Positions 24,640 through 59,296 of a stretch of DNA of 64,000 bases are shown here, one piece after another. The notes under the pieces were generated by a model that saw only the letters and a program-made list of their open reading frames with translations, ran no database searches and was not told the DNA's origin. The stretch covers positions 68,204 through 132,203 of the forward strand of contig JBAYKP010000001.1 in assembly GCA_041664465.1 (NCBI GenBank), read 5' to 3'. How positions within the stretch are numbered: position 1 is the first letter of the stretch; each line of letters starts with the position of its first letter. A program made the position numbers and the translations under genes. The stretch comes from Minisyncoccota bacterium. GTDB lineage: Bacteria; Patescibacteriota; Minisyncoccia; Phycocordibacterales; UBA9973.

Positions 24640-24835
24640 AATAAAGGCAATAAAGTTGCTAATAAATTTCACCGGGACCGTGAGTACACTTATCGACGAT
24701 TACATCGTCAGGTACTTTTCGCTCTGTTTAGCAACAGAGAACGAAAAGTCTTTCGCTTCCCGGACGCGAGATATGCAGATATCTCGCTTAGGGTCACAAA
24801 TTAAAAACACCCTCTTTCGAGAGGTTTTTAATTTG
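24640..24835 (-). ncRNA. candidate structured RNA or multi-hairpin terminator region immediately 3' of tRNA-Glu
   Basis: Four consecutive stem-loops on one strand. One is gggtcacaaattaaaaac.ccctct/agagg.tttttaatttgtgaccc, a ~22-bp stem overlapping the tRNA 3' acceptor strand. The others are cgcgagatatgc-a-gatatctcgc, cttttcgctctgtt/aacagagaacgaaaag and gacgat-gta-atcgtc. No ORF of significance. Confidence 0.25.
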
Positions 24836-24907
24836 TGACCCTACCGGGAATCGAACCCGGATTACCGGCTTGAAAAGCCGATGTCCTAACCGTTAGACGA
24901 TAAGGCC
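24836..24907 (-). tRNA. tRNA-Glu (anticodon TTC)
   Basis: Reverse complement is GGCCTTATCGTCTAACGGTTAGGACATCGGCTTTTCAAGCCGGTAATCCGGGTTCGATTCCCGGTAGGGTCA. The acceptor stem has two G-U pairs and the anticodon loop is TTTTCAA. Confidence 0.75.
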
Positions 24908-38367: not shown

Positions 38368-38910
38368 ATGATTAAAATTGTTCAAAGTGAAGATCCAGTC
38401 CTACGCAAAATATCAAAGGAAGTTCCTCTCGCTCTCATCAGCAAACCGAAAATACAAAAAATCGTACAAGATATGATGGTGGCTTTAGATTCTCAAGATG
38501 ATGGTGTAGCTATTGCTGCTCCACAGATAGGAGTATCACTTCGTATCTTTGTAATCTCTGGAAGAATTTTCGATGAAGATTTCATTAGAGGAAAAGGCTC
38601 AACGCAAGGCGATCTCTACAAGAAAGCTCGTCGCCCTGATATGGTCTTTATCAATCCAATATTGAAGAAGATATCTAAAGATAGAAAGCTCCTATCCGAA
38701 GGATGCCTCTCTGTCCGACCTCTATATGGCAAAGTCCGCCGTGCCACTCGTGCCTCAGTCGAAGCTTATGATGAAAATGGCAAGAAATTTAGCAAAGATG
38801 GAAATGGATTACTCGCTCATATTTTTCAACACGAGACAGATCATCTAGATGGAATACTCTTCACAGACAAAGCAAAAGATATACACGAAACGCTTTTAGA
38901 TGAAGAATAA
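38368..38910 (+). CDS. def: peptide deformylase
   Basis: GVAIAAPQIG (motif 1), EGCLSV (motif 2) and HETDHLDG (motif 3). Confidence 0.9.
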   Translation: MIKIVQSEDPVLRKISKEVPLALISKPKIQKIVQDMMVALDSQDDGVAIAAPQIGVSLRIFVISGRIFDEDFIRGKGSTQGDLYKKARRPDMVFINPILKKISKDRKLLSEGCLSVRPLYGKVRRATRASVEAYDENGKKFSKDGNGLLAHIFQHETDHLDGILFTDKAKDIHETLLDEE

Positions 38911-38911
38911 A

Positions 38912-38936
38912 CCTAGCAAGAACGGTTCTTGCTAGG
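38912..38936. repeat. REP palindrome cctagcaagaac-G-gttcttgctagg (12-bp arms), followed by two half-copies that overlap the 3' end of the RAYT gene
   Basis: Perfect palindrome. Half-repeats ttcttgctagg run to ~38975. Confidence 0.75.
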
Positions 38937-38955
38937 TTCTTGCTAGGTTTTCTTG

Positions 38956-39636
38956 CTAGGTTTGAGGTTCTAGGGTTTCAAAATAATTTTCAACAAATTC
39001 CTTAAAAGATTGTTTATTATGAAAATAATCTGGAAAATTATCTTTATTTAAAATACTATTTTCTATTCTATCATCTCCTGTATAATCTTGATAACTAGAA
39101 TATTTATATGATTCTAAAAAGTTCTTCATATCTACTGATGACTTATTCAAATTATCTTCCCACTCAGGAAATTCTATCTCTAATGAATTAAGATGAATAT
39201 ATGCAAATAATTGTCTTAAATAATTATCATCATTCCCTACTAATTTAGCTTTAAATAATCCTCCAAATAATGCTCCTTTTCTTTGATATTTTATATTAAA
39301 AAACATTGAATATCCTACTCCTAATTTTCTCATAAATTTAGTTATACCACCATCAACATCTTGTCTAACTAATATGTGAAAGTGATTGTTCATCAAACAC
39401 CACGCACCAATAGAGATAATACTCTTTTCTTTTTTGATTTTTAAAATATCATAGTATTTTTTATTTTGATTATTTACAAGATTATCAATCCGAAAAGATT
39501 CTTCAGAGTTTGCGAGATAAAGAAGCATAATAAATCTTTCATAATCTCCTTTGATTTTAAAAATTACTCTCTTATCAATACCCCTATTATAAATATGGTA
39601 ATATTCTCCTGTTATAAATGGATCTTTCCTTAACAT
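38956..39636 (-). CDS. IS200/IS605-family Y1 (HUH) transposase, REP-associated tyrosine transposase (RAYT)-like
   Basis: GEYYHIYNRG..., LMNNHFHILV (HUH motif) and ...QLFAYIHLNSL (candidate catalytic Tyr). It is flanked on both sides by the same 25-bp REP. Confidence 0.6.
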   Translation of the reverse strand: MLRKDPFITGEYYHIYNRGIDKRVIFKIKGDYERFIMLLYLANSEESFRIDNLVNNQNKKYYDILKIKKEKSIISIGAWCLMNNHFHILVRQDVDGGITKFMRKLGVGYSMFFNIKYQRKGALFGGLFKAKLVGNDDNYLRQLFAYIHLNSLEIEFPEWEDNLNKSSVDMKNFLESYKYSSYQDYTGDDRIENSILNKDNFPDYFHNKQSFKEFVENYFETLEPQT

Positions 39637-39662
39637 AATTATATTATATCAATTTCAAACGC

Positions 39663-39687
39663 ACCTAGCAAGAACGGTTCTTGCTAG
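39663..39687. repeat. REP palindrome copy (same orientation as 38912) plus a half-copy
   Basis: cctagcaagaacggttcttgctagg, followed by tagttcttgctagg. Confidence 0.75.
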
Positions 39688-39716
39688 GTAGTTCTTGCTA
39701 GGTTCTATAAAATATA

Positions 39717-40295: not shown

Positions 40296-40350
40296 GTAAT
40301 ATTGCGAATAGTCTCACGAAATATCAAAAGGTGATATCGTGATATCGAAA

Positions 40351-40375
40351 CCTAGCAAGAACCGTTCTTGCTAGG
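40351..40375. repeat. REP palindrome copy in inverted orientation (central C)
   Basis: cctagcaagaac-C-gttcttgctagg, preceded by the direct repeat gtgatatcgtgatatcg. Confidence 0.7.
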
Positions 40376-40404
40376 TGGAGGAGGTGTGATATACTCTGTG
40401 GTAT

Positions 40405-41280
40405 ATGAATACAGAGAAAAAGAATCTAAAATTTATATTCTTTGGGACACCCTATGCCGCAAGTAAGACATTGCAAATACTTAAAGAAAGAGGATATATA
40501 CCAGAAGTGATTGTGACCTCTCCCGATGCAAAAAAGGGGCGTGGCTTGGAAATGCACGAAACGTCAGTATCAACTTGGGCTAAGGAGAATAATATAAAAT
40601 GCTTAAAGCCTGAAAAAATTGATGAAGAATTTATAAATAATATTTTCCCTAGCCACAAGTCCGACTTGTGGCCGATACTTTCTGTAGTTGTGGCTTATGG
40701 GAAAATACTCCCAGAAATACTAATCAAAAAGCCTGAATTTGGAACTATAAATGTTCATTATTCCCTTCTTCCAAAATACAGAGGTGCATCTCCTCTTGAG
40801 GCTTGCCTATTAAATGGAGATGAAGTTACTGGGGTAAGTATTCAGCAGATGGAATATAAATTAGACAGTGGGCAAATATTACGAGAAGAGAAAATAGATA
40901 TAGGTATAAATGATACTAAAGAAGAATTACGTGAGACTCTCATAAGTCTAGGAGGAAATGTCTTATGTGATATTTTACCCCAAATAGTAAACCAAGAAAT
41001 TAAATCAAAAGCTCAAGATGAGAATCTAGCGACCTTCTGTAAGAAAATTAAAAAAGAAGATGGGGAAATCAATCTAGAAGAAAATGCTAAAGAGAATTGG
41101 AATAAATACAGAGCTTACTCTGGCTGGCCTGGGGTATTCTTCTTTGCAACTAAACATAATAAAAAGATAAGGTGCAAAATAACCAAAGCTAAATTAGAAA
41201 ATAATCAATTTATTATTGAAAAAATAATACCGGAAAGTAAAAAGGAGATAGATTATGAATCTTTCTTAAAACAAAATTAG
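40405..41280 (+). CDS. fmt: methionyl-tRNA formyltransferase
   Basis: KFIFFGTPYAA, VVVAYGKILP, INVHYSLLPKYRGASPL. It carries a 21-bp palindrome (40653-40673) in frame (...PSHKSDLWPI...). Confidence 0.85.
   Translation: MNTEKKNLKFIFFGTPYAASKTLQILKERGYIPEVIVTSPDAKKGRGLEMHETSVSTWAKENNIKCLKPEKIDEEFINNIFPSHKSDLWPILSVVVAYGKILPEILIKKPEFGTINVHYSLLPKYRGASPLEACLLNGDEVTGVSIQQMEYKLDSGQILREEKIDIGINDTKEELRETLISLGGNVLCDILPQIVNQEIKSKAQDENLATFCKKIKKEDGEINLEENAKENWNKYRAYSGWPGVFFFATKHNKKIRCKITKAKLENNQFIIEKIIPESKKEIDYESFLKQN
40653..40673. repeat. palindrome gccacaagtc-c-gacttgtggc in frame inside fmt
   Basis: 10-bp arms. A near-identical element (gccataagtccgacttatggc) lies inside rnhB. Confidence 0.65.
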
Positions 41281-47752: not shown

Positions 47753-48418
47753 TTATCCTAGCTCTTTGGATATTCGCCCTTCTAAATATTGAATTCTTTT
47801 CTCCAATCTACCTATACCCTGCGTGGCTTGGGCAACCATTTTCTTATTGATTTCAGAATTTATAGTGTATTCATTCGAGAATGCTTTTCTTATTGTTTCT
47901 AATAGTTTATTCGTTGGTGGTAATTTCTCTTTCTTCTTTTGGAGTCTATCTAGTGCACTCCGGGCTTCTTCTAATTTAAAACCCAATTGCTCATAATCAA
48001 GCCGGTTATCCCCATACGTCCTCCCATTACTATCTATCATTATCACTTTCACAACATCAAAATCTTCATCCATAGAATCACTAATCTCGACAGGCACTGC
48101 TGTGTCACTGTCGATTTCAAATGATCTAAATTTATTCTCATTTTTATCACCTTCGTTTTTATTATCTTTTTTACTTTCATTATTTCCTCCTTCATTTCCC
48201 TCATTCTTACTATTTATTATCTCAATATCTGATTTAAGTTTTTCTATTTCTTTATTTCTATACTCCTTGCTTTCAGTTTTTAATTTACCTTTTTTATCTC
48301 CTTCATTGACAATTTTAATAGACTCAACAGGAAGTGCTTTCTCAATAGCACCTTCTTCTGCCTTTATAATTTCCCCTTCTATTTTAACATCTTTATTACT
48401 CTTATTATCTATACTCAT
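47753..48418 (-). CDS. hypothetical K/E/N-rich low-complexity protein
   Basis: 221 aa with a charged low-complexity centre (NEGNEGGNNESKKDNKNEGDKNENK). Confidence 0.35.
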   Translation of the reverse strand: MSIDNKSNKDVKIEGEIIKAEEGAIEKALPVESIKIVNEGDKKGKLKTESKEYRNKEIEKLKSDIEIINSKNEGNEGGNNESKKDNKNEGDKNENKFRSFEIDSDTAVPVEISDSMDEDFDVVKVIMIDSNGRTYGDNRLDYEQLGFKLEEARSALDRLQKKKEKLPPTNKLLETIRKAFSNEYTINSEINKKMVAQATQGIGRLEKRIQYLEGRISKELG

Positions 48419-48440
48419 AATCTGTATTATATCACTAAGT

Positions 48441-49169
48441 TTACATCCTATCCAGAGATTTTACTGTCACCTTCCCATCAATTATTGTATAACTGAATTC
48501 TGCTTTCTTTTGGATATGTCCATCTTCGTAGGTCAGTATCATAGTCCCCTTTTTTGTGGACGGATTTATATTCACCACAGTTGCATACCACGAGCCACCT
48601 AAAACGGGCTTGTCGGAGACAATTGTACCTATATTATCGCGGACATATTTATCAACTAAATTCCGGTCTTGTAATGATTCGCAGTCTATTTGGGACATTT
48701 GAGGCCCAGAGGCTATTTGGTTAGAATCTTTGTATACATAAGTTCCATCTCCTCTATCTATCATTTCACAACCTAAGGTAACAGCACTTCCTTCGCCGAA
48801 TTCAATTTTCAATTGCTCTGTCACACTCATTCCCTCTCCTTCAGATTCCCACCAAACATCTGCAATACGACCACTTATCTTGGGATCCATTGGACCTACC
48901 GTGCCACTAAATTTCCCCACCTTACTGTCTTTCTCGGCGAGTAAGCTCTGGTATTCACCAGTCACATTACTCCCTGAAATATTCATTTGAAGCCACATCC
49001 GATCGACAAATCCCCTAGAAGTTACTTTAGAATATTGATAGCACATACTTATAGGTTCTTGGGGTATTACCACAACATCTTTCTTTGTATTTTTATTTCT
49101 TGATATTACAAAAGCAATTCCAGTAAGAATAATGACAAACAAAACAACATAAATTAGTATTTTTTTCAT
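48441..49169 (-). CDS. hypothetical secreted or membrane-anchored protein
   Basis: N-terminal TM segment ILIYVVLFVIILTGIAFVI, then a beta-rich domain. Confidence 0.4.
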   Translation of the reverse strand: MKKILIYVVLFVIILTGIAFVISRNKNTKKDVVVIPQEPISMCYQYSKVTSRGFVDRMWLQMNISGSNVTGEYQSLLAEKDSKVGKFSGTVGPMDPKISGRIADVWWESEGEGMSVTEQLKIEFGEGSAVTLGCEMIDRGDGTYVYKDSNQIASGPQMSQIDCESLQDRNLVDKYVRDNIGTIVSDKPVLGGSWYATVVNINPSTKKGTMILTYEDGHIQKKAEFSYTIIDGKVTVKSLDRM

Positions 49170-49630
49170 TATTTTTTTACAATCTCTCTTAATCTATCAA
49201 TAAAGGCTTTTTCCCAAAATTTCATTGAATATGAGCCTATAAGTGGCCCCGCTACGAGCCTTAGCCAAAAGCTATGAATATCAACCTCATAGGTATAATT
49301 AATTCTTGTTCCCTCTTCTACCTCTTCCATCAGAAATTCTTCATGCCCAGATATGCCTAATTTGGGATTCTCATTGAGAGATATATATCCCACCCCCGGG
49401 ATAATTTCTGTTTTCATTTTGACTGGGAATACTGTACCGAAGGACTTCACTTTTGCATCAATTTCCAATTTATTGCCATCTCTCTTGGTAATAACCAATG
49501 ACTCTGCAACTGTTGGGAAATTCTTTGGCATATTTTCAAAATCAGTAACAATTTTAAAAACTTCACCAATAGGAGCTTTAATAACCCATGAGCCTTTTAA
49601 ACTAATATGTTTCATTGTTTTATTATACAA
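49169..49630 (-). CDS. SRPBCC (START/polyketide-cyclase-like) domain protein
   Basis: ...SLKGSWVIKAPIGEVFKIVTDFENMPKNFP... is the typical N-terminal strand/helix of Polyketide_cyc2-like proteins. Confidence 0.5.
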   Translation of the reverse strand: MYNKTMKHISLKGSWVIKAPIGEVFKIVTDFENMPKNFPTVAESLVITKRDGNKLEIDAKVKSFGTVFPVKMKTEIIPGVGYISLNENPKLGISGHEEFLMEEVEEGTRINYTYEVDIHSFWLRLVAGPLIGSYSMKFWEKAFIDRLREIVKK

Positions 49631-49746
49631 TAAAAACTGAAACTTTTTAAATCCAACAAAACCTAGTAATAACGTCTTGCTAGATAAATATGGCTCAAAA
49701 TTTTGCTCCGAAATTGGAAGGAAATTCGAATGGAAATATTAAATAA

Positions 49747-50256
49747 TTGATATCATATGATATAATAAAAATTATGGGAAAGATAAATATCTACATTGAT
49801 GGAAATAATTTATATCGCTCGGCCAAAGAATTAGGATTTGAAATTGATTATAAAAAGTTCCGTGTATGGTTATCTCAAAAATATAATACAAAAAACATAT
49901 TTCTTTTTATTGGGTATTTAGAAAATAGAAAAGATTTTTATAATTATCTTAAAAATTGTGGTTTTGATTTAATATTTAAAGAAGCAGTTCTTCATGAAGG
50001 TAATATTAAGGGAAATTGCGATGCCGAACTTGTATTAAAATCGGTTGATGATTATCATCTAAAGAATTTTGATAAATTTATACTAATTTCTAATGATGGA
50101 GATTTCGGTTGTCTTATTGAATTCTTAATAAATAAAAATTGTTTTGACATTATATTATCTCCTGATAGAAAGAAGTGTTCTATTTTATTGAGAAATAAAA
50201 CAAATAAGATTTTATATTTAAACGAAATTTATAAAAAGTTCTCAAAAAAGAAATAA
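49747..50256 (+). CDS. NYN-domain (PIN-like) putative ribonuclease
   Basis: INIYIDGNNLY, GNCDAEL, ILISNDGDF: the acidic residues of the LabA/NYN fold. Confidence 0.6.
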   Translation: MISYDIIKIMGKINIYIDGNNLYRSAKELGFEIDYKKFRVWLSQKYNTKNIFLFIGYLENRKDFYNYLKNCGFDLIFKEAVLHEGNIKGNCDAELVLKSVDDYHLKNFDKFILISNDGDFGCLIEFLINKNCFDIILSPDRKKCSILLRNKTNKILYLNEIYKKFSKKK

Positions 50257-50414
50257 TATAGTCTATATAAAAAGAAAAAGCTCCCGGTATGGGCGCACCC
50301 ATACAGGGATCTCTTTCATAATGATATCAGTATTATATCATATTGCCGAAAGTATGCAAGTATTTTATTTAGGTTCGAACTTCTACCAAAGCAGGGAAAA
50401 TAGATCTTAAATTA

Positions 50415-50438
50415 CCTAACAAGAACCGTTCTTGCTAT
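50415..50438. repeat. degenerate REP copy (cctaacaagaac-c-gttcttgctat)
   Basis: Two mismatches relative to the 38912 REP. It is intergenic, next to the R-M/MazG block. Confidence 0.5.
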
Positions 50439-50444
50439 ATTTAA

Positions 50445-50840
50445 TTAGTTTTGATTATTATTTTCTAACTTTTTTATCTTTTTGAATTTATACCACCCAA
50501 TAATTACTGGTAAGACAAAAGTTAAAATATAATAAATATAAACATCGATTTTATAATAACCAGTTACTTTAAGTACTTTAATCATGAAAATATAATCCAA
50601 AGCCACTGCCATAATAGCCCAAATAACCCCTAATCCGATATAACACCCAAATTCTTCTCTTTTAATTTTCTTAAGCAACACCCAAAGAGTAAACGCTATT
50701 CCGAAAGGCATAATGCTCCAGCCTATAAATTCTTTTGGCACAAAAGCAAAAAATACAAATCCTAAAACATAGCCAAAAAGCCAAACAATAAATCCCCAAA
50801 AAACAGTATTAAGAAAAATTTTCCCTTTATTTGTTTCCAT
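50445..50840 (-). CDS. hypothetical four-TM membrane protein
   Basis: Hydrophobic profile only. Confidence 0.35.
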   Translation of the reverse strand: METNKGKIFLNTVFWGFIVWLFGYVLGFVFFAFVPKEFIGWSIMPFGIAFTLWVLLKKIKREEFGCYIGLGVIWAIMAVALDYIFMIKVLKVTGYYKIDVYIYYILTFVLPVIIGWYKFKKIKKLENNNQN

Positions 50841-50843
50841 AAA

Positions 50844-51092
50844 TTAATATCTATATTTATAAGGCTTCACCGTTCCTTTCTTCCCTGAATAAGGATTATA
50901 ATTCCCTTTTGTAGAATAGTTATCTAACTTGGTTTTATTTGGAGAAGTTCGGTAAGAAGGTGCTACATATTTCATAGTGGAAGGTTTAAAATAACCTTTT
51001 ACTTTAACAGTCTTGGCTTCTACAGATGAGACAGATACAAACAACCCTAATAATAGAAACCCTAGAATACTTAAAACTGCAAGTTTTTTCAT
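50844..51092 (-). CDS. small secreted K/Y-rich protein
   Basis: Signal peptide MKKLAVLSILGFLLLGLFVSVSSVEA, then a Lys/Tyr-rich 55-aa tail. Confidence 0.35.
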   Translation of the reverse strand: MKKLAVLSILGFLLLGLFVSVSSVEAKTVKVKGYFKPSTMKYVAPSYRTSPNKTKLDNYSTKGNYNPYSGKKGTVKPYKYRY

Positions 51093-51152
51093 ACAATATT
51101 TGAAGTGATTATTAATATCCTAATCATATGCCTATTTATGGATAAATCAAGG

Positions 51153-51866
51153 CTAAATACTTTTTATTGAATGAATAACCTTATCCATAAAATTATCATA
51201 GTCATTTAATATAATTCCATCTCCAAAAGTCACGAGTGATTTTTTTGATAATTTTAATTCAATACTATTTTTAATACTTAAATAATATTTCTTATATTGA
51301 GATTTTTTTATTATTTTATCTTTTATTAGATCCGGAAATTTAATCATAAATATTAATGTTTTTGTGGGCGTATGGAAAAATACATCTTCATCGTCTTGTG
51401 ATAATTTAAAATACTTATGGATATTATTGTCCGTAATTTTTTCCCACTTTGTGATCATACCCTTATTGTTATAATAAGGTAATTCTTCTGGTAAAACTAA
51501 AATCTGATAATATTTTTTCTTATTAGCTCTTATATTTGCTGTTTCTCCTAACATATTTTCAAAATAATTATTTGAATTTTGAGAATAATTATTCATGACA
51601 AATTTAACAGCAACTCCGGCAAGATCTTTTTTGTCTTTAAAAATAGTAATATCTACTGTCTTGTCCATATATCTACCTTCCATTTTAGCTTCTTTCCCCT
51701 TCCCCAAACCAAGGGAACTGACAGTGTATTTATTCCCAAGTCTTTTTTCTAAATCTTTCGCAATTGCCCCATGAAGTATTTTTAACTTTTCATTACTTCG
51801 TGAATGTGTTTGTAAAAATTTTACAAATGATTGACTTACTATTTTCAAAAATTTTTGATTATTCAT
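51153..51866 (-). CDS. putative type II restriction endonuclease (partner of the adjacent methyltransferase)
   Basis: It lies immediately downstream of, and is co-oriented with, the N6A MTase, 23 nt apart. The candidate PD-(D/E)xK-like segment MDKTVDITIFKDKK gives no family-level match. Confidence 0.35.
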   Translation of the reverse strand: MNNQKFLKIVSQSFVKFLQTHSRSNEKLKILHGAIAKDLEKRLGNKYTVSSLGLGKGKEAKMEGRYMDKTVDITIFKDKKDLAGVAVKFVMNNYSQNSNNYFENMLGETANIRANKKKYYQILVLPEELPYYNNKGMITKWEKITDNNIHKYFKLSQDDEDVFFHTPTKTLIFMIKFPDLIKDKIIKKSQYKKYYLSIKNSIELKLSKKSLVTFGDGIILNDYDNFMDKVIHSIKSI

Positions 51867-51889
51867 TTTTATGATTATTATATTAATTA

Positions 51890-53356
51890 TTAAAATAAAG
51901 ATGGCTGAACTTTATAAAATTGAGGATGAACAAAATCTTTCATGAAACTTTTAGCATATGATTTATATCCACCACGATAACTTTTGGAAATTGAATTTAT
52001 ATACTCTTCCATTGAATTTGAATTTAACACTTCGCAAAGGGCATATAGATCAACATCTTTATTTTTTGGTTTTATACAATAACCAGAATAAAAACTTGTT
52101 TTTTCGTCTTCTATTACAAAAAAGTGAGGAGTGAGATTCATTGTACTAGTTATTATTTTTTTACCAAAACCAGTTTTTAAACTTTGGTTTCTTCCAAAAG
52201 AATAAAATTCTTCATAATTTTTACCACCACCCTTGTCTCTTTTTTCTAAAATATCACGATTATATAAAAAATATTTATATGCTTCTGGATATTTATTTAT
52301 AAAAATATTTTTAGGAATTATTCTTTCATTTTTATACGGAAAAATCAAAAAAAGATTCTGATTTTTCCCTTTATAAGTAGATGCTTTAATAATTGGAACA
52401 CACAAATTTCTCTCTATTTTAAAATTATCTTTATAAAAATATATTTTATCTATTTTTTCAGGAGAAAATATATAAACATCATCTTTTAATGTAGCAATTC
52501 CATAATGGATGTCCGCTATTTCTTGAAGTGTTGAATATTTTTTATTTAATTTATCTATTTTTTTAGAATATTCTTCACTTAAAAATTGCCATGGTTTTAA
52601 CTTATCTTCTATATTTTTCAATATCTTTTTATAAACAATATCATTAAAATTATTTTTATAGTTCTCTGTATATAAAAAATTATGGGTATTTTCTTTATTT
52701 AAAAATGTTATGGCGGTGTAAGTTGTTGCGTCTTTAAATACCTGAAAGTGATCAAAATTAATGATTTTTGTTAAATGTGGATAAATTAAATTTCTTAAAT
52801 TTCTCCCAGCACTAGAGTGAAAATGAGAGTTAGGTGTAATAAAAGAAAGTTTCCCGTTTTCTGTTAATAAATTCAGAGACTGCTCAAAAAAACAAAAATA
52901 TAAATCAATGGAGCCATTAGATGCTGATATAAACTTCTTTTGTATTTCATCTCTTTTTTCATTAAGATTTTGTATTCTCACATATGGAGGATTACCTATT
53001 ATAAAATTAAATTTCTCTTTAAAATCATGAAAACAAAAATCATTAATAATTGAGTTATATTGGGTAATTTCTTCATTAGATAATTCTTGTAAATTTTGTT
53101 TTGTTTTGTTTATATATTCTTCTGAAATGTCAATAAAATAAAGATTGTTTTCAATTACATCTTTTATTGATTTTCCAGATATTTTAGAAAATTTCTTAAC
53201 TATTGGAATAGAAAAAGCACCTTCTCCACATCCAGAATCTAATATTTTTTCTGATCCTGTTATTTTTGTATCTTTAAATACTTCATCAATCATAAAATCA
53301 ACTATCCATTCCGGAGTAAAAACAACGCCATTTTCTTTTTTAGATTTAACATTCAT
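51890..53356 (-). CDS. N6-adenine DNA methyltransferase (gamma-class; TaqI/Eco57I-like)
   Basis: GVVFTPEWIVDFM (motif X), LDSGCGEGAF (motif I FxGxG) and IIGNPPY (motif IV) in gamma-class order. A C-terminal target-recognition region. Confidence 0.8.
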   Translation of the reverse strand: MNVKSKKENGVVFTPEWIVDFMIDEVFKDTKITGSEKILDSGCGEGAFSIPIVKKFSKISGKSIKDVIENNLYFIDISEEYINKTKQNLQELSNEEITQYNSIINDFCFHDFKEKFNFIIGNPPYVRIQNLNEKRDEIQKKFISASNGSIDLYFCFFEQSLNLLTENGKLSFITPNSHFHSSAGRNLRNLIYPHLTKIINFDHFQVFKDATTYTAITFLNKENTHNFLYTENYKNNFNDIVYKKILKNIEDKLKPWQFLSEEYSKKIDKLNKKYSTLQEIADIHYGIATLKDDVYIFSPEKIDKIYFYKDNFKIERNLCVPIIKASTYKGKNQNLFLIFPYKNERIIPKNIFINKYPEAYKYFLYNRDILEKRDKGGGKNYEEFYSFGRNQSLKTGFGKKIITSTMNLTPHFFVIEDEKTSFYSGYCIKPKNKDVDLYALCEVLNSNSMEEYINSISKSYRGGYKSYAKSFMKDFVHPQFYKVQPSLF

Positions 53357-53398
53357 ATTAATATATTATATCATTTTATACATACAAACTATAATTTT

Positions 53399-53785
53399 TT
53401 ATAGTTTATTATATTTCGTATGCTTTCCTTTGGCTTTCTTTACTGGGTATTTTTCTTCGTTTTTCTTCATTTTTTTATCTAATGCGTCTATAATATCTAT
53501 CTTCAAATCATGGCTCATAAGTAAAACCCAATAGAAGACGTCTGCCAGCTCTTCCCCAATATGCTCTTTGTGTGACTTTATATATTCTTCAATTTCTTCT
53601 TTTGATTTCCATTGAAAATGCTCCAGAACTTCAGAAGCCTCAAGTGAAAGAGAAATTGCTAAGTCTTTTGCATTATGAAATTGCTTCCATTTTCTAGCAT
53701 TTCGGAAAGCTAGTATCTTCTGTATTGATTCACTCAAATCTCCTTTCATAATTTGAAGTATAGCTCTATTTCCCTTTTGAGACAA
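53399..53785 (-). CDS. MazG-like nucleotide pyrophosphohydrolase
   Basis: FRNARKWKQFHNAKDLAISLSLEASEVLEHFQW and EELADVFYWVL. This is the EExxE/D metal-binding helix pattern of the MazG/NTP-PPase family. Confidence 0.65.
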   Translation of the reverse strand: MSQKGNRAILQIMKGDLSESIQKILAFRNARKWKQFHNAKDLAISLSLEASEVLEHFQWKSKEEIEEYIKSHKEHIGEELADVFYWVLLMSHDLKIDIIDALDKKMKKNEEKYPVKKAKGKHTKYNKL

Positions 53786-53882
53786 TATGGGGGATTTTTG
53801 GGATAAGTATTAAAGTAATATACCTTTTGCTTTTTTAGTCTATTTTTGCTACTATATTCTAGTCTATTATTAATAGACGTAT

Positions 53883-53954
53883 TCCGTGGTAGCTCAGCGG
53901 TAGAGCGGTCGCCTGTTAAGCGATTGGTCGTAGGTTCGATCCCTACCCACGGAG
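53883..53954 (+). tRNA. tRNA-Asn (anticodon GTT)
   Basis: TCCGTGGTAGCTCAGCGGTAGAGCGGTCGCCTGTTAAGCGATTGGTCGTAGGTTCGATCCCTACCCACGGAG. Cloverleaf with anticodon loop CTGTTAA. The antisense ORF 53746-53961 (VGIEPTT) is a tRNA artefact. Confidence 0.85.
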
Positions 53955-54054
53955 CAGACAAATTAACTCATTATTTTTAATGAGTTTGTTGTAGATTGAC
54001 AGCTTTGCTATTTAAGGGTAATGTGAAGAAAAATAACTTAAAAATGAAATAATC

Positions 54055-54282
54055 ATGAGAAAACCATTTTATGAATCAATTCTTTCTTCTCTTCATGAGG
54101 TAATGAACTTAGAACAATTAAAAGTGTTGGCTAAGTTAATTATTGAAACTGAAATTCCCAAAGAGCATAGGGATGTGGTTGCTGAAGCATTTTTACTTGC
54201 ACAAGCTTGTATTAGATATGCAGGTGGCGAAATCTTAGTTGATATTGTTATCTCTTCTCTTAAAGAAGAAAATCTAAATTGA
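54055..54282 (+). CDS. hypothetical protein
   Basis: 75-aa ORF with no motifs. Confidence 0.3.
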   Translation: MRKPFYESILSSLHEVMNLEQLKVLAKLIIETEIPKEHRDVVAEAFLLAQACIRYAGGEILVDIVISSLKEENLN

Positions 54283-54330
54283 AAAATGTAATGTAAAAGA
54301 AATTATTGTTTTACTTAAAAATGAAAGATT

Positions 54331-54918
54331 ATGAAAAAATTAGTAATTTACAGATGTTTACCTTTCAAGGATTGGCATCAACCATTTGATAAAGATGGTA
54401 GCAGGTGGCTTATTGGTGGATACAGGCAAGAATGCAGTTGTCCATACGGAAGCCATTGGGATCCAAGATTTTTAGATTACAAAGATCCACTAAACTTAAA
54501 AGAAATTCTCTCCATGCAAGAAGGAATAAAACTTTTAACTTTTTACTCTTGGAAAGACGAAGAATATGTGGCTTTTCATACATTTAAAAATGTTGAATTT
54601 TATTCTGATTTTATGCGTATACTGTTTAAGGAAAAAGTGGATGTTTGTGAGTACGGAGGAACTGGAGAGCAGCTTACGGGAACCAGGCTTATTGCGGTAA
54701 TTGAAGATGCAGGTGAAATCAACGCTTTTGGAAAAATTGGAGGCATTGATGAGTTTATTGATGAGCTGTCAAAATTAACTGGCATTTCAATCCAGGAGAT
54801 TAAACAACAAATTAATGAATTAGATGAAACACCCATTCCATCAGAACTAAAAATTTCAATAGAAGAAATTACTGAGGAAGCTAAGAGGTCGGGCAATCTT
54901 GCTCCAATTTTTGGGTAA
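54331..54918 (+). CDS. hypothetical protein
   Basis: 195-aa ORF containing CSCPYGSHWDP. No recognised domain. Confidence 0.35.
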   Translation: MKKLVIYRCLPFKDWHQPFDKDGSRWLIGGYRQECSCPYGSHWDPRFLDYKDPLNLKEILSMQEGIKLLTFYSWKDEEYVAFHTFKNVEFYSDFMRILFKEKVDVCEYGGTGEQLTGTRLIAVIEDAGEINAFGKIGGIDEFIDELSKLTGISIQEIKQQINELDETPIPSELKISIEEITEEAKRSGNLAPIFG

Positions 54919-55037
54919 ATTAAACTAAACCGCTAGTTGTCGGGTAGTAGTAGAAACTGCTATTCACACTAGCGGTTTTCTATTTATCTAATTAAGGTTC
55001 CAATTCTGTCCCTCCCCACCTCCCCACCTTCCCCACT

Positions 55038-55070
55038 CAAAACCCCCTAGCTTTGCTTCGGGGGTTTTGT
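55038..55070. terminator. bidirectional rho-independent terminator
   Basis: aaaaccccc-tagctttgcttc-gggggtttt. Confidence 0.65.
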
Positions 55071-55094
55071 TATTGAGGAATTTATAGGAATCAA

Positions 55095-55796
55095 TTAGTG
55101 TACAACTACTGTATGGGCATTATTGGCGGCTGATTTCTTTGCTACCATACGAGCAACTACTATGATTGCTAATACCAAGAGTATGAACATAATCCATTGG
55201 AATAGTGAACTTGGTAAGAAGCTACCAGAACCTTTCAAGGACAAAGCTGTGACTCCATTGGTGTCTACTTGCTGTGTTGCATAAGGTTGATAAGCACTTG
55301 CTACCATCATATTGTTGGAGTAACCTCTGTTGGCATCGAAATTTACATACTGACCAGTATTACCTTTGTTGCCTGTGGCTGTTGGAATTGTAGTAGTAGT
55401 CGTATTTGCATTTATGACAGAAGCTCCTTGTGTATTACCAGTGGTAACATATCTGACAGTTTGCTGTTGGGGTGCATATTGGACGACTTGCTGTTGCGGA
55501 ACGTACTGAACAGTTTGCTGTTGAGGTACGTATTGTATCTGAGTTGTAGTTGGCTGTGCATATACATAAGTATAAGGTTGCCTTACATAATTGCTATTAA
55601 TAGAATTATTATAATAAGAAGGAGTGCTAAGGTCTGTAACACTTGTGCTATAGCCATTATTATAATATCCATCACTATAATAAACAGCGGCAGAAGCATC
55701 ATGATACGAAACGGCAAGAATAGCAAAGATTCCGAGAGCTATTAAGTTTTTTAAAATATTCTTTTTCATAAGCCATATTATATCATATAAGTACAT
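55095..55796 (-). CDS. secreted Y/Q/T-rich repeat protein with a C-terminal TM anchor
   Basis: Signal peptide (likely start MKKNILKNL at 55769), QYVPQQQTV x3 repeats, T-rich segments, and a C-terminal TM helix FQWIMFILLVLAIIVVARMVAKK. Confidence 0.45.
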   Translation of the reverse strand: MYLYDIIWLMKKNILKNLIALGIFAILAVSYHDASAAVYYSDGYYNNGYSTSVTDLSTPSYYNNSINSNYVRQPYTYVYAQPTTTQIQYVPQQQTVQYVPQQQVVQYAPQQQTVRYVTTGNTQGASVINANTTTTTIPTATGNKGNTGQYVNFDANRGYSNNMMVASAYQPYATQQVDTNGVTALSLKGSGSFLPSSLFQWIMFILLVLAIIVVARMVAKKSAANNAHTVVVH

Positions 55797-55883
55797 ACTT
55801 TGTCAAGCACTTAAACTACGGCTAAAACCCTTGATAAATAAGCCCAAAAAAGGTAAAGTATATTTGTTTCGCTTTTAAAAATT

Positions 55884-58538
55884 ATGATAACGAAATTGAA
55901 AAATAACAAAAAGAGAGTTCGCCTAGAGGACTATATCTCCCCTGTTAGCTACAATCTGACCTTACATCCTGACCTTTTGTCTTCTACTTTTTCGGGACGC
56001 GAAATTATAAAAATAAAAGTGGATAAAGAAATAAAACAAATCACTTTGCATAGTAAAGATATAGATATAGAAACGGTAGAGCACATAGCAGATGGCACGC
56101 AACAATTTGCCCATAAAATCACATACGATGCAAAGAGAGAAACTGCAACTTTCTATTTTAAAAATAAAATAAAAAAAGGGCAGAGCGAGCTCTCAATTAT
56201 TTTCAGTGGTATCATCAATGATAATTTGAGAGGATTTTATAAAAGTAGATACATACTAGATGGTGAAGAGAAATTCATAGCCACGACCCAGTTCGAAGCA
56301 ACAGATGCTCGCCGTGCTTTCCCTTGCTTTGATGAGCCAGCACACAAAGCAATATTTGAAGTATCGCTCGTAATACCTGAGAATCACACAGCCATATCAA
56401 ATACTTTACCTATTGAAATAAAGGAGCACAGTCTCGGATACAACATAGTATCTTTCTCTCCCACGCCGATAATGTCTACTTACCTACTCGCATTTATTAT
56501 CGGCGAGTTTGAATATGTGGAGGGATATACCCGTCCGAACGGGTCATCCGGGCAGGCTAAGGACAAGGTTCTTGTCCGTGTATTCACAACTTCTGGTAAA
56601 AAGCATCAAGCCAAATTTGCATTGGAAGTCGCTATCAAATCACTTGAATTTTATAATGAATATTTTGATATACCCTATCCACTTCCTACCTTAGACCTCA
56701 TCGCTATCCCCGACTTCGAAAGTGCGGCAATGGAGAACTGGGGGGCCATCACTTTCCGCGAGACGGCTATACTCGTTGATGATCTACATACTTCCCTTTC
56801 AAACAAACAATGGGCAGCGATAGTGATAGCCCACGAATTGGCACATCAGTGGTTCGGCAATCTAGTGACGATGCATTGGTGGACAGACCTCTGGCTCAAT
56901 GAAGGCTTTGCTTCATATATGGAAAATTTATGTACGGATCACCTCTTTCCAGACTGGCATGTATGGGATTTAAATATTGCCGATAGATATGCTGTCGCTC
57001 TCAAGCTTGATTCACTTGCCACTTCACATCCAATAGAAGTAGTCGTCCACCACCCAGATGAAATAAGTGAAATCTTTGATATGGTCTCTTATGCTAAAGG
57101 CTCTGCGATGATAAAAATGCTGGCAGAATATCTAGGGCACGACAAATTCCGCGATGGGCTACGTCACTATTTGAAAAAGCACAGTTATGGTAATACCAAT
57201 ACCGTAGATCTCTGGAATGCTTTTGAGAAAGTAAGCAAAAAGAAAGTAATAGAAATAATGAATTCTTGGACGAAAGAAACCGGCTATCCACTCGTGACAA
57301 TTTCCCCTAGGCAAGGCCTAGGGGAAATGTGGGAAATCAGACAAGAGCGATTTTTCTCAAGTAGAGTGAAAGCTTCTGAATATAAAAATTCAAAAAGTAA
57401 AAAACACTTGTGGCAAATACCTGTGAAATACGAAAGCCTGTCGGATAATAGAGAAGTTATGGATATGCTCATGACTAAAAAATCTGCTCCAATGATTGGC
57501 ACCTCTATCGGCAAAGTAAACAAAGAAGAAGGAACATTTATACGAGTCTGCTATGATCAAGAGACTCTTAAAAAATTGAAAGAAGAAATACAAAATGGGA
57601 AACTTTCTGTGAAAGATAGACTGGGAGTTATTCGTGATATGTTCGCTCTGGCTGAAGGTGGATACATCAGTACGATAGAAGTACTTGAATTCTCTCTCGT
57701 ATATAAAAATGAAACAGAGTTCATCGTCTGGTCTGAAATAGCGAGTGGTATAAATAGAGTGGCAAATATATTGGGCGAAGAAAAATTTAAAAATCTATAC
57801 GATAAATACGTACTCACATTATTTAGTCACATCGCAAAAGAATTGGGGTGGGGAGAAACCCCCTCGCCCTCTGGGCACTCCCCCTTAACAGGGGGAGACA
57901 AACACTCACAAGTTTTCTTGCGGAGTCTAGCACTCTCTATGTCGGCACATTATGGAGACAAGAAAGTAATTACCGAAGCCAAAAAACTCTTTAAAAATAA
58001 GGCTAAAATGCCAATAAGAGCTGACATCCGCGGAGTAGTCTACAACATTGTGGCTGCAAGTGGCGGGGAGAAGGAATGGAAACTTTTCGAAAAGTTATAC
58101 AAAGAAGAAGAATTTCATGAAGAGAAGGATAGATATGCTAGGGCATTAACTTCATTTAAAAATAAAGATCTACTTCGGAAAACTTTAAACTTTGCTATAT
58201 CAAGAGACGTTCGTGTTCAAGACGCTCCATTCATAATAGTGGCCGTCTGGCAGAATAGTATAGGTAAAGACATTACTTGGAAGTTTATAAAAAGTAATTG
58301 GAAAATAATTGTGAAAAAGTTTGGCGAGGGTGGACATTTCCTCTCCCGAGTCCTCTCTCCTCTCGGTACTCATACAAAAGAAAAAGATTACAAAGACATT
58401 AAAAATTTCTTTGCTAAAAATGTCGCCCCTGGCTCTGCCCGCACCCTCCTCCAATCCTACGAACGCATCGAGTCCAACATCGCTTGGCTCAAAGATGACA
58501 AAGCCTCTATCAAATCTTGGCTAACAAAAAATTACTAG
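55884..58538 (+). CDS. pepN: aminopeptidase N (M1 family)
   Basis: GAMENWG, the HELAHQWFGNLVTMHWW zincin motif, and LWLNEGFASY. It carries in-frame palindromic inserts at 57304-57324 and 57845-57897. Confidence 0.9.
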   Translation: MITKLKNNKKRVRLEDYISPVSYNLTLHPDLLSSTFSGREIIKIKVDKEIKQITLHSKDIDIETVEHIADGTQQFAHKITYDAKRETATFYFKNKIKKGQSELSIIFSGIINDNLRGFYKSRYILDGEEKFIATTQFEATDARRAFPCFDEPAHKAIFEVSLVIPENHTAISNTLPIEIKEHSLGYNIVSFSPTPIMSTYLLAFIIGEFEYVEGYTRPNGSSGQAKDKVLVRVFTTSGKKHQAKFALEVAIKSLEFYNEYFDIPYPLPTLDLIAIPDFESAAMENWGAITFRETAILVDDLHTSLSNKQWAAIVIAHELAHQWFGNLVTMHWWTDLWLNEGFASYMENLCTDHLFPDWHVWDLNIADRYAVALKLDSLATSHPIEVVVHHPDEISEIFDMVSYAKGSAMIKMLAEYLGHDKFRDGLRHYLKKHSYGNTNTVDLWNAFEKVSKKKVIEIMNSWTKETGYPLVTISPRQGLGEMWEIRQERFFSSRVKASEYKNSKSKKHLWQIPVKYESLSDNREVMDMLMTKKSAPMIGTSIGKVNKEEGTFIRVCYDQETLKKLKEEIQNGKLSVKDRLGVIRDMFALAEGGYISTIEVLEFSLVYKNETEFIVWSEIASGINRVANILGEEKFKNLYDKYVLTLFSHIAKELGWGETPSPSGHSPLTGGDKHSQVFLRSLALSMSAHYGDKKVITEAKKLFKNKAKMPIRADIRGVVYNIVAASGGEKEWKLFEKLYKEEEFHEEKDRYARALTSFKNKDLLRKTLNFAISRDVRVQDAPFIIVAVWQNSIGKDITWKFIKSNWKIIVKKFGEGGHFLSRVLSPLGTHTKEKDYKDIKNFFAKNVAPGSARTLLQSYERIESNIAWLKDDKASIKSWLTKNY
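57304..57324. repeat. palindrome cccctaggc-aag-gcctagggg in frame in pepN (the same element is found in mnmA at 3915-3935)
   Basis: Identical 21-mer to the mnmA copy. Here it encodes SPRQGLGEM. Confidence 0.7.
57845..57897. repeat. GC-rich composite palindromic element in frame in pepN (same family as mnmA 4368-4450)
   Basis: ggggtggggagaaaccccctcgccctctgggcactccccc-ttaaca-gggggag shares ccccctcgccct.cgggcactccccctt..cagggggag with the mnmA element. It encodes GWGETPSPSGHSPLTGGD. Confidence 0.7.
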
Positions 58539-58570: not shown

Positions 58571-59296
58571 TTAGTGTATAAATGACTTGCGATGGATTGG
58601 GGTCTGACCGTGAGTTCTGATGGCAGAATAGTGAGCGCGGGTACCATAACCCATATGCTTATTGAAACCGTATTCGGGGTAATCCAAAGCATACTTTGTC
58701 ATAATCCTATCTCGCGAAACTTTCGCCACAATGGATGCCAAAGAAATAACCGGATGAAGCTCATCCCCTCTTATAATCGTCTCCTGATTTATGTACTCTA
58801 CTGGGGCATGAAGTCCACCATCGAGAAAAATCTTGAACGAAGAGAGCGAAACAGAATCTTCCAAATTTTTATCGGCGTCGGAGCCCTTTAGGGTAAGCCC
58901 TGAAAAATTTGGAAGATTCTGTGAAGCGACTTTATCAAGTGACTGATTCAAAGCTTTCTGAATACATTTTGCAATTCCAAATTTATCAATATTCTCGGGG
59001 GAAACAAAAGACACAGCATAGTCGCAAAGACCTTCGGTCTTTGCGACTTTCAAATATTCAAACCACTCTTCCCTTTGCTTCTTACTAAGCTTCTTCGAAT
59101 CTTTTAATTTTGGTAATTTTACATAGGACGGTCCTATGTCTTTTTTGCCATAAGTCCGACTTATGGCTGATTCAATAAAATTATTATCCTTAATTAAAAA
59201 AGCACAAACAGCCACTGGCCCTGCCAAAGGGCCCCGACCAACCTCATCTATGCCAATTATGTATTTTGTGGTGTCTAAAGCTCCCATATAGAACAA
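58571..59296 (-). CDS. rnhB: ribonuclease HII
   Basis: IIGIDEVGRGPLAGPVAVCA (DEVGRG catalytic motif). It carries two in-frame palindromes at 59121-59167. Confidence 0.85.
   Translation of the reverse strand: MFYMGALDTTKYIIGIDEVGRGPLAGPVAVCAFLIKDNNFIESAISRTYGKKDIGPSYVKLPKLKDSKKLSKKQREEWFEYLKVAKTEGLCDYAVSFVSPENIDKFGIAKCIQKALNQSLDKVASQNLPNFSGLTLKGSDADKNLEDSVSLSSFKIFLDGGLHAPVEYINQETIIRGDELHPVISLASIVAKVSRDRIMTKYALDYPEYGFNKHMGYGTRAHYSAIRTHGQTPIHRKSFIH
59121..59167. repeat. two palindromes (acataggac-g-gtcctatgt and gccataagtc-c-gacttatggc) in frame in rnhB
   Basis: They are related to the mnmA element ctacataggaccgtcctatgtag and the fmt element gccacaagtccgacttgtggc. They encode ...RTYGKKDIGPSYVKLPK.... 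Confidence 0.7.

Follow-up and report, generated by a model that had tools for sequence, protein, structure and literature searches.

Palindromes in rnhB and in other genes of the window

The gene rnhB, which encodes RNase HII (Pfam RNase_HII, E 3.9e-32), lies at positions 58571-59296 on the minus strand of a 64-kb stretch of DNA, the whole of which we call the window; it is the end of a 133-kb contig from a metagenome-assembled genome of Candidatus Paceibacterota (Paceibacteria; Candidate Phyla Radiation, CPR). The open reading frame (ORF) comprises 241 aa, with the gene start as recorded at Met4, and contains the two perfect palindromes under study. Palindrome 1 (59121-59139) is ACATAGGAC-G-GTCCTATGT, a 9+1+9 arrangement that encodes (D)IGPSYV on the minus strand; its coding strand reads ATA GGA CCG TCC TAT GT, giving IGPSYV (I54-V59). 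Palindrome 2 (59147-59167) is GCCATAAGTC-C-GACTTATGGC, arranged as 10+1+10, and encodes AISRTYG (A44-G50), also on the minus strand, through GCC ATA AGT CGG ACT TAT GGC. Both lie between the invariant catalytic block GIDEVGRGPLAGPV (aa 15-28) and the motif DSKKL (aa 66-70). An earlier note on this DNA had described two in-frame palindromes between conserved regions of rnhB, and their coordinates, their perfection and the identity of the gene as RNase HII are confirmed. Perfect palindromes in which arms of 9-15 nt enclose a single unpaired base or a 3-nt loop form a superfamily that populates this Paceibacteria genome and its relatives, and the archetypes flank a conserved Y1/HUH transposase gene that resembles the REP-associated tyrosine transposases (RAYTs) of repetitive extragenic palindromes (REPs).

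The two palindromes are related to each other, with 6/9 arm positions in common and the consensus CATARGWC-N-GWCYTATG. Both are predicted to form hairpins, with z about -4.8 as RNA and as DNA alike, in which the innermost pair opens for steric reasons to leave a 3-nt loop. The gene has three palindrome-bearing sites, two of them hypervariable in length and the third differing in sequence only. We refer to the segment with palindromes 1 and 2 as site 1; site 2 carries a third palindrome, AGTCGCAAAGACC-TTC-GGTCTTTGCGACT (59020-59048). A 72-nt (24-codon) inverted-repeat element with perfect 20-nt arms also lies in frame at 58851-58922. It is found in most orthologues and is missing from the shortest, and other lineages have further insertions at the same site; its arm sequence has matches in rnhB orthologues only. 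It is no obvious miniature inverted-repeat transposable element: the 20-nt terminal repeats are perfect, but no target-site duplication is evident and no copies were found outside rnhB orthologues. The AlphaFold model of the protein (mean predicted local distance difference test score, pLDDT, of 60, and below 50 in the insert regions) was too poor for use.

Palindromes of this kind are abundant in the window. Compared with 30 dinucleotide shuffles, perfect hairpins with a stem of at least 9 and a loop of at most 4 number 26 against 2.8 expected; with a stem of at least 12 there are 14 against 0, and with a one-base centre 8 against 0.7. The pattern CATAGGNCNGNCCTATG, allowing up to 3 mismatches, has 8 matches where 1.1 are expected, every one in coding DNA. 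At least 14 palindrome copies lie inside ORFs. Outside rnhB there are about ten: six in mnmA (3631-4863), one in fmt, two in pepN and a doublet in an S-adenosylmethionine (SAM)-methyltransferase gene. The elements measure 19-29 nt, or 62-72 nt for the methyltransferase doublet and the rnhB inverted repeat, and scans for Rfam families and tRNAs gave no matches at the palindrome sites.

The closest relatives of the rnhB palindromes are those to which the earlier note had pointed, and both relationships hold. In mnmA, the palindrome TACTACATAGGAC-C-GTCCTATGTAGTA (3864-3890) contains the palindrome 1 element in another frame (LHRTVLCS) and is kept in the orthologous locus L174; from 3868 to 3886 its arms are identical to those of palindrome 1 and the centre is flipped, C instead of G. 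In fmt, GCCACAAGTC-C-GACTTGTGGC (40652-40672) is a relative of palindrome 2, again in another frame (SHKSDLW), and differs by a single compensated pair. The same DNA is thus read as IGPSY in rnhB and HRTVL in mnmA, and as ISRTY in rnhB and HKSDL in fmt. This indicates that the conserved unit is the nucleic acid and not the peptide, and for this reason we reject selection for an 'IGxxY' motif at the peptide level.

Other copies extend the pattern. The mnmA palindrome TTCCCCTAGGC-AAG-GCCTAGGGGAA (3913-3937) and the pepN palindrome ATTTCCCCTAGGC-AAG-GCCTAGGGGAAAT (57300-57328), whose arms take in conserved flanking codons, are identical over 23/23 nt (mnmA from 3914, pepN from 57303), in unrelated genes 55 kb apart. 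The methyltransferase gene contains, in frame, a doublet of two inverted copies of CCATAGGTC-A-GACCTAGGG (5352-5413), which resembles a REPIN. An insertion in mnmA contains two C-rich/G-rich palindromes (4368-4450), CCTCCCCT-GCTA-AGGGGAGG and CTCCCCCT-TGGC-AGGGGGAG; the arms of the latter, at 4431, recur in the pepN palindrome CTCCCCCT-TAAC-AGGGGGAG (57878-57897), which sits within a 10-codon insertion also present in the orthologous locus L087. The remaining mnmA palindromes are CACAGGTC-A-GACCTGTG (3726-3742), whose centre flips among orthologues (Leu/Gln), and TATACCAGT-TGG-ACTGGTATA (3889-3909; YTSPTGI), which is absent from L174 and L175, the two orthologous loci read as DNA.

Turnover and compensated change among orthologues

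The alignment of RNase HII with its orthologues, which the earlier note had proposed, reveals the palindrome site as a length hot spot with interchangeable cassettes. The rnhB orthologues share 77-81% identity and range from 201 to 262 aa, with all of the length variation at the palindrome-bearing sites. (A profile search of genome contigs with the rnhB alignment returned, among the matches listed, mostly distant Firmicutes; the related loci L001-L006 were little used.) Site 1 varies from 21 to 40 aa in 111 rnhB homologues. The commonest short form (22 aa, ENQKEK-type) occurs in 38 of the 111, and L083, the sole such gene read as DNA, has no module. Longer forms contain one or two modules, for example IGQTY, IGKAY, IGLAY, IGPSY, ISRTY, TSPTC or TSPTG, each built from reverse-complementary codon pairs. 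The DNA of site 1 was compared in five orthologues (L082, L083, L085, L087 and L088): the palindrome is TGCATAGGTC-A-GACCTATGCA in L082, GCATAGGTC-A-GACCTATGC in L085 and GCCATAGGC-AAG-GCCTATGGC in L088, L087 has two imperfect palindromes of the AGTC-C-GACT type, and L083 has none.

At site 2 the window shows zero length change relative to L087 and L088, which have no palindrome there, and the right arm consists of invariant Cys-Asp codons. The arms of the carriers differ by compensated pairs (AAGACC/GGTCTT, AAAACC/GGTTTT and AAAGCC/GGCTTT), and a synonymous change in one arm is paired with a Leu-to-Phe change in the other. A single position in pepN is occupied by one palindrome in the window and by a different one in L087, and the outer arms of both are inverted copies of the conserved left-flank codons (Ile/Val) and co-vary with them: ATT TCC...GGA AAT in one, GTT TCG...CGA AAC in the other. 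At this pepN site L082 has an imperfect element of the kind found in fmt and as rnhB palindrome 2, which also encodes SHKSDLW. Elsewhere in pepN (56532-56558), a 9-codon insertion relative to three orthologues (RPNGSSGQA) contains the short palindrome ACCCGT-CCGA-ACGGGT, and weaker palindromes of this sort, under our stem threshold, probably mark further insertions.

The mnmA and methyltransferase genes provide further examples. The mnmA palindrome with ACATAGGAC arms is common to the window and L174; in the palindrome next to it the outer arms are kept and the core differs between orthologues (TC-T-GA vs C-AAG-G), and the centre of the CACAGGTC palindrome is T or A depending on the orthologue, which exchanges Leu and Gln. 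In the methyltransferase doublet, the two centres are A/T where the window is concerned but C/G in L174 (9069-10016); the 21-nt arms are perfect in both, and the whole doublet is absent from L175. Compared with solved structures, site 1 of rnhB and the first hot spot of mnmA are insertions relative to distant homologues. In all cases the host ORFs stay open, and the insertions fall between conserved motifs. As read from these alignments, related species differ by gain, loss and exchange of elements at the same codon positions. We also note that mnmA, at 352-465 aa among orthologues, has at least five indel hot spots, and that only a few relatives share a 9-aa insertion of the window's mnmA (the APASPTSQGG region, before YTAQIRYHG).

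Since related palindromes occupy the same codon positions in independent assemblies, obtained from other samples and with different assemblers, the palindromes are not assembly artefacts. The source is a metagenome-assembled genome, and nothing else speaks for an artefact of assembly or gene calling; the ORFs are intact, the shuffle controls oppose chance, and we regard the probability of either as negligible.

The net length changes (+3 to +7 codons at site 1 and zero at site 2) show that these are not clean cut-and-paste insertions, and the insertion of a fixed 21-nt unit does not agree with them. They are what one might expect if the palindromes had formed in place without a transposase, through fold-back of the nascent strand or template switching (quasi-palindrome correction) that perfects and lengthens chance inverted repeats, with the likeness between loci due to ectopic conversion or a common sequence bias. 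Such a process, the main rival to an enzyme that seeds the elements, would agree with the irregular lengths at site 1, with the invariant Cys-Asp codons and unchanged length of site 2, and with the pepN outer arms that invert and track the conserved codons beside them. However, it leaves unexplained the identity of 19-23-nt sequences in unrelated genes 55 kb apart, and as a full account of the palindromes we consider it unlikely; the hairpins around the Y1/HUH gene bear on it further.

A Y1/HUH transposase gene and its hairpins

The window contains one RAYT-like Y1/HUH transposase gene (38956-39636, minus strand), whose product matches Pfam PF01797 (E 2e-8) and has an HFH motif and a tyrosine in the context YIHLN. 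In the alignment of its family, HFH (aa 85-87) and Y146 are invariant, as is Y-I-H-x-N, in which the asparagine four residues after the tyrosine is of the TnpA-REP type. Most members have NP[LV][EK] without a final Gly (NSLE in the window copy), and the N-terminal motif, YYHIYNRG, lacks a Thr where RAYTs have theirs. The only NCBIfam match of the window protein is NF047646 (REP-associated tyrosine transposase). All 25 of the 25 family members tested match this model and no other NCBIfam model, with a best E of 4.2e-13, and the single family member for which a score was returned falls below the cut-off. In a profile search of the PDB the only HUH match was the TnpA-REP structure 4er8, at a non-significant E of 0.9, and a sequence search of the PDB with the protein gave no match; the AlphaFold model (pLDDT 39) was too poor for use. 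The family is large, and its members are conserved at a level typical of housekeeping proteins (70-93% identity), with the gene in non-syntenic contexts in different genomes.

Identical palindromes surround this gene (ACCTAGCAAGAAC-S-GTTCTTGCTAGGT on both sides). The upstream hairpin is ACCTAGCAAGAAC-G-GTTCTTGCTAGGT (39663-39689); the downstream one (38910-38938) has the same sequence and a terminator-like score, and is followed by partial arm copies. Taken over 38909-39689, the two are identical palindromes of 27-29 nt, each followed by tandem partial copies of one arm. With a solo copy centred on C just upstream of fmt (40350-40376) and a degenerate copy with 3 mismatches (50415-50439), the family numbers 4 copies in the window.

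A survey of about 80 related loci from metagenomes reveals that this arrangement is general. The core yGCAAGrAC-N-GTyCTTGCr lies upstream of the gene in 59/76 loci and downstream of it in 57/82; 51/75 have it on both sides, a figure that rises if other palindrome families are counted. In the 49 distinct upstream hairpin sequences, pairs 1-9 are 100% Watson-Crick and positions 3 and 9 covary perfectly. The outer stems are locus-specific but still pair perfectly, over up to 21 nt. In the related loci, about 1.0 Mb of sequence, the core has 28 solo matches.

The palindromes differ between enzymes. The subfamilies GCAAGAAC, GCAAGGAC and GCTAGGAC each accompany different Y1 homologues, and divergent Y1 paralogues (32-50% identity) have families of their own: CTAGGC-AAG/CTT, GTCAAAGC-TCG/CGA, CATAGGGGTACCCTATG doublets, ATCAAGGTT-C and GAAGTCC-A. 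Cognate solo copies lie in long ORFs near the Y1 gene in L094, L105, L115, L118, L150 and L170, and four loci of divergent paralogues (L170, L115, L143 and L126) have both their own palindromes and cognate solo copies in nearby ORFs. The Y1 gene is thus constantly associated with palindromes of the same design, each paralogue with its own family. In L143 (6461-7200) and L126 (19845-20087), the Y1 paralogues carry their own flank palindrome within their own coding sequence (TTGGTCAAAGC-TCG-GCTTTGACCAA and GTCAAACAC-TCG-GTGTTTGAC). The inner core of rnhB palindrome 1, AGGAC-N-GTCCT, is also that of the GCAAGGAC and GCTAGGAC subfamilies.

The earlier note had surmised that the palindrome families share a common processing enzyme, and the window does contain a candidate for it, flanked by palindromes of the same design; the connection is one of association. 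These observations also bear on the formation of palindromes in place. The locus-specific yet perfectly paired outer stems of the Y1-flanking hairpins would agree with it, but the inner core common to hundreds of copies in many species and the tight match of each Y1 paralogue with its own family are not explained by it. The in-place process is best seen as secondary, acting on elements already seeded; given the irregular net lengths and the outer arms derived from the flanks, a secondary process such as template switching must operate.

Could the Y1 gene and its two hairpins be an ordinary autonomous IS200-type element, with the in-gene palindromes unrelated to it or remnants of its ends? The non-syntenic contexts of the gene would agree with this, as would the two hairpins, which often have the same centre, like the left and right ends of IS200/IS605 elements on one strand. 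However, contigs with two Y1 copies contain divergent paralogues (32-71% identity) with different hairpins, and near-identical duplicate units were not seen, either in the window with its one copy or in the contigs examined, which are not whole genomes. The housekeeping-level conservation of the protein, the Tyr-x-x-x-Asn motif as in TnpA-REP, where the TnpA of IS200 has Gln (PMC6006769), the match to the RAYT model as the only one in NCBIfam and the solo hairpins away from the Y1 gene all argue against it as well, and no relative was found in 2.9 million viral contigs (IMG/VR). We consider such an element very improbable. The palindrome pattern occurs in only 28 of the IMG/VR contigs, one copy in each; with no Y1 relative there and palindromes this rare, we reject a viral origin.

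Some features of the hairpins hint at a role in expression. The right arm of the upstream Y1 hairpin carries a -35-like TTGCTA, 17 nt before a TATAAT. The solo copy (region 40350-40395) lies 29 nt upstream of the fmt start codon and has a promoter-like TTGCTA-16-TATACT; judging from these motifs, it could act as a portable promoter. In 56/69 cases of the survey, 39-41 nt separate the centre of the upstream hairpin from the ATG, a constancy of spacing that suggests autoregulation through the hairpin. One could therefore ask whether the palindromes in general are selected structures of mRNA or DNA (translation pausing, RNase sites, portable promoters or terminators, protein binding sites) that selection keeps perfect. 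The compensated pair changes in several elements, the strong predicted folding (z as above), the -35-like box and the solo copy directly before fmt are all in keeping with this. The elements, however, are highly polymorphic in presence among close relatives, with the shortest site-1 form in over a third of rnhB homologues (no module where read as DNA); the same element occurs in different unrelated housekeeping genes, none matches an Rfam family, and the positions are tied to no common regulatory need. As a general explanation, selection for structure seems improbable to us.

The earlier note had further proposed that the central unpaired base defines the orientation of the palindromes, and this part is not supported. 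Any of the four bases can stand at the centre, and at one and the same site the base can flip from one orthologue to another (T/A in mnmA; A:T vs C:G in the methyltransferase doublet). On the sense strand of the Y1 gene the centre is mostly C (upstream C45 G11 A9 T4; downstream C33 G18 T6 A4), and where both flanking hairpins are compared, their centres agree in 29 loci and are complementary in 21. Solo elements centred on C or G show no bias with respect to local GC skew (7 C : 10 G; n=17, too few to conclude). The hairpins adjoining the Y1 gene are biased (43 : 13, p 7e-5), which probably reflects the orientation of the Y1 gene. In classical REPs, orientation is given by the GT(A/G)G head and the imperfect stem and not by the central base (PMC2817692, PMC3733652). 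The central base is a labile feature and no dependable mark of orientation; an orientation bias was not seen in this small sample of solo elements, but the architecture is shared across loci.

The window and its relatives contain other features of note. A second superfamily of palindromes, with polypyrimidine/polypurine arms such as CCTTCCCCT-TTC-AGGGGAAGG and CCCTCTCCT-GAA-AGGAGAGGG, recurs within long ORFs of related genomes (L085 1089-1174; L118 3755-4211 and 11476-11919; L126 7633-7655) and resembles the window palindromes at 4368-4450 and 57878-57897; no associated enzyme was identified for it. A perfect 20-nt inverted repeat with a 15-nt spacer, TAGGGTCACAAATTAAAAAC...GTTTTTAATTTGTGACCCTA, lies at 24789-24843, and its right arm abuts or overlaps the 3' end of a tRNA-Glu gene (24835-24907, minus strand). 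The stretch from about 48000 to 56000 has a low GC content (0.30 vs about 0.36) and may be an acquired island. It contains an Eco57I/MmeI-like restriction-modification gene (51890-53356, minus strand) and a MazG-like gene (53399-53785, minus strand) that adjoins a tRNA-Asn gene (53883-53955).

A probable REP-like system and its known counterparts

In our judgement it is rather likely that palindromes 1 and 2 are members of a REP-like superfamily, and that Paceibacteria have a REP/RAYT-like system with elements that persist in coding DNA, where they lie in frame. The parts of this explanation do not carry equal weight. REP-like elements are repeated in these genomes and reside in frame, and our confidence in this is very high. 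That the Y1 enzyme spread them we would hold with moderate confidence, the link being circumstantial, and our confidence in a maintenance step by template switching is lower. The system as such is real, widespread in Paceibacteria and mechanistically suggestive.

By analogy with RAYT/REP and IS200/IS605, the Y1 enzyme would recognize the hairpin on single-stranded DNA and copy or move it; copying or exchange of this kind has been proposed for RAYT/REP and demonstrated for IS200/IS605 (PMC2817692, PMC6006769). Because the genome has almost no intergenic space, most landings would fall within genes, and only stop-free, in-frame copies in tolerant protein loops would survive, as cassettes of about 4-7 codons. 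A resident hairpin would then be kept perfect, lengthened into the adjoining codons, flipped at its centre and homogenized with other copies. The cause of this upkeep may be hairpin-templated copying (fold-back, template switching or ectopic conversion), which would explain compensated changes that override the amino-acid sequence.

Several points weigh against this explanation. The rnhB palindromes differ from the palindrome that flanks the window's own Y1 gene, and a cognate Y1 gene for them was not found within the 64 kb. The Y1 protein lacks both the N-terminal Thr of RAYTs and the final Gly of NP(L/V)(R/K)xG; with about 225 aa it is about 70 aa longer than typical RAYTs, and the window copy scores 24.9 bits on NF047646, where the cut-off is 80. 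The rnhB, fmt and Y1-flank palindromes have no GTAG/CGTC head. The centres of the Y1-flanking hairpins are not consistently complementary, whereas Nunvar et al. describe an inverted pair, and the few solo elements lack a skew bias. There is no one fixed insertion size.

A more far-reaching reading takes a domesticated Y1/HUH enzyme of Paceibacteria and its hairpins as an active system that writes, exchanges and repairs palindromic cassettes in coding DNA, the hairpins having a role at the level of the host. We think this rather doubtful. If true, perfect hairpins would be upheld in essential enzymes despite an amino-acid cost, and they might serve as portable -35 promoters, terminators, or sites for replication or single-stranded DNA handling, placed in coding DNA because these genomes have no intergenic room. 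The REP system would then be one that resides in coding sequence and also generates length hypervariability in housekeeping proteins, throughout a major part of the CPR.

To our knowledge, nearly all REP/RAYT systems described so far come from Proteobacteria and a few other phyla. The likely REP-like explanation given above would place a related system in the ultra-small genomes of the CPR. These have almost no non-coding DNA, and for that reason the elements can be seen inside essential genes, as in-frame cassettes. The hundreds of metagenomic orthologues provide a natural record of gain, loss and exchange at single-codon resolution, which could make the mechanism of REP-type dissemination testable. 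For some of the length variation and the 'extra loops' seen in CPR housekeeping proteins, the elements also offer a concrete explanation. Peptides encoded by palindromes are not homologues in the ordinary sense, so caution is called for when CPR proteins are aligned, placed in phylogenies or subjected to structure prediction. Compensated changes that alter amino acids while a DNA hairpin stays perfect would be an unusual case of nucleic-acid structure overriding protein sequence.

Our literature search turned up no report of RAYT or REP elements in connection with CPR, Patescibacteria or Parcubacteria. The nearest counterparts are the REP/RAYT (TnpA-REP) systems, REPtrons and REPINs of Proteobacteria (Nunvar 2010, PMC2817692; Bertels & Rainey 2011, PMC3116915; Bertels 2017, PMC5581495). 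As there, a Y1/HUH homologue is conserved like a housekeeping gene and has palindromes on both sides in addition to solo copies. Each paralogous enzyme comes with a palindrome family of its own, and changes in stem pairs are compensated; as in REPINs, the doublet at 5352-5413 gives a longer hairpin. In contrast to REPs, the palindromes described here are perfect and have a 3-nt loop or one base at the centre; a GT(A/G)G or CGTC head is missing, although the mnmA copy alone reads, by coincidence, CTAC...GTAG. Judged by the centre base, the flanking copies are not consistently inverted. RAYT-specific residues are a Thr near the N-terminus and NP(L/V)(R/K)xG by the tyrosine (PMC2817692), and Asn, not Gln, four residues after it (PMC6006769); the enzyme described here has this Asn but, besides its greater length and its score below the curated cut-off, lacks the Thr and the final Gly of the latter motif.

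IS200/IS605 elements likewise have a Y1/HUH enzyme, which recognizes subterminal hairpins on single-stranded DNA (PMC6006769) and therefore offers a mechanistic model for the cutting and joining of such hairpins. They are, however, multi-copy autonomous elements with imperfect hairpins and a Tyr...Gln motif, insert seamlessly beside a fixed tetra- or pentanucleotide, and do not leave dispersed solo hairpins behind (PMC6006769).

The Rickettsia palindromic elements (RPEs), the classical case of palindromic repeats in frame, form families with specific consensus sequences in a host unrelated to the one here. In most of these families the elements are much longer (about 100-150 bp), and we know of no Y1 transposase that accompanies them. 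What they share with the elements described here is that palindromic repeats lie in frame, at surface-tolerant positions, in functional protein genes of a reduced genome (PMC3733652, PMC1779305).

Intragenic REPs have been described from Opitutus terrae, Thauera, Xanthomonas and Rickettsia (Di Nocera et al. 2013, PMC3733652). There, as here, single or dimeric palindromes lie in ORFs, adding in their case up to about 20-30 amino acids; they are often found in enzymes that handle nucleic acids, and different REPs can share an orthologous site (PMC3733652). Those REPs, however, are imperfect stem-loops tagged with GTAG or CGTC, in large genomes in which intragenic copies are a minority. The elements described here are untagged, perfect and shorter (19-29 nt), they occur in several housekeeping genes of the one 64-kb window, and in this CPR bacterium a large share of the copies lies in frame in essential genes and not, as in the classical REP/RAYT systems, in extragenic DNA.

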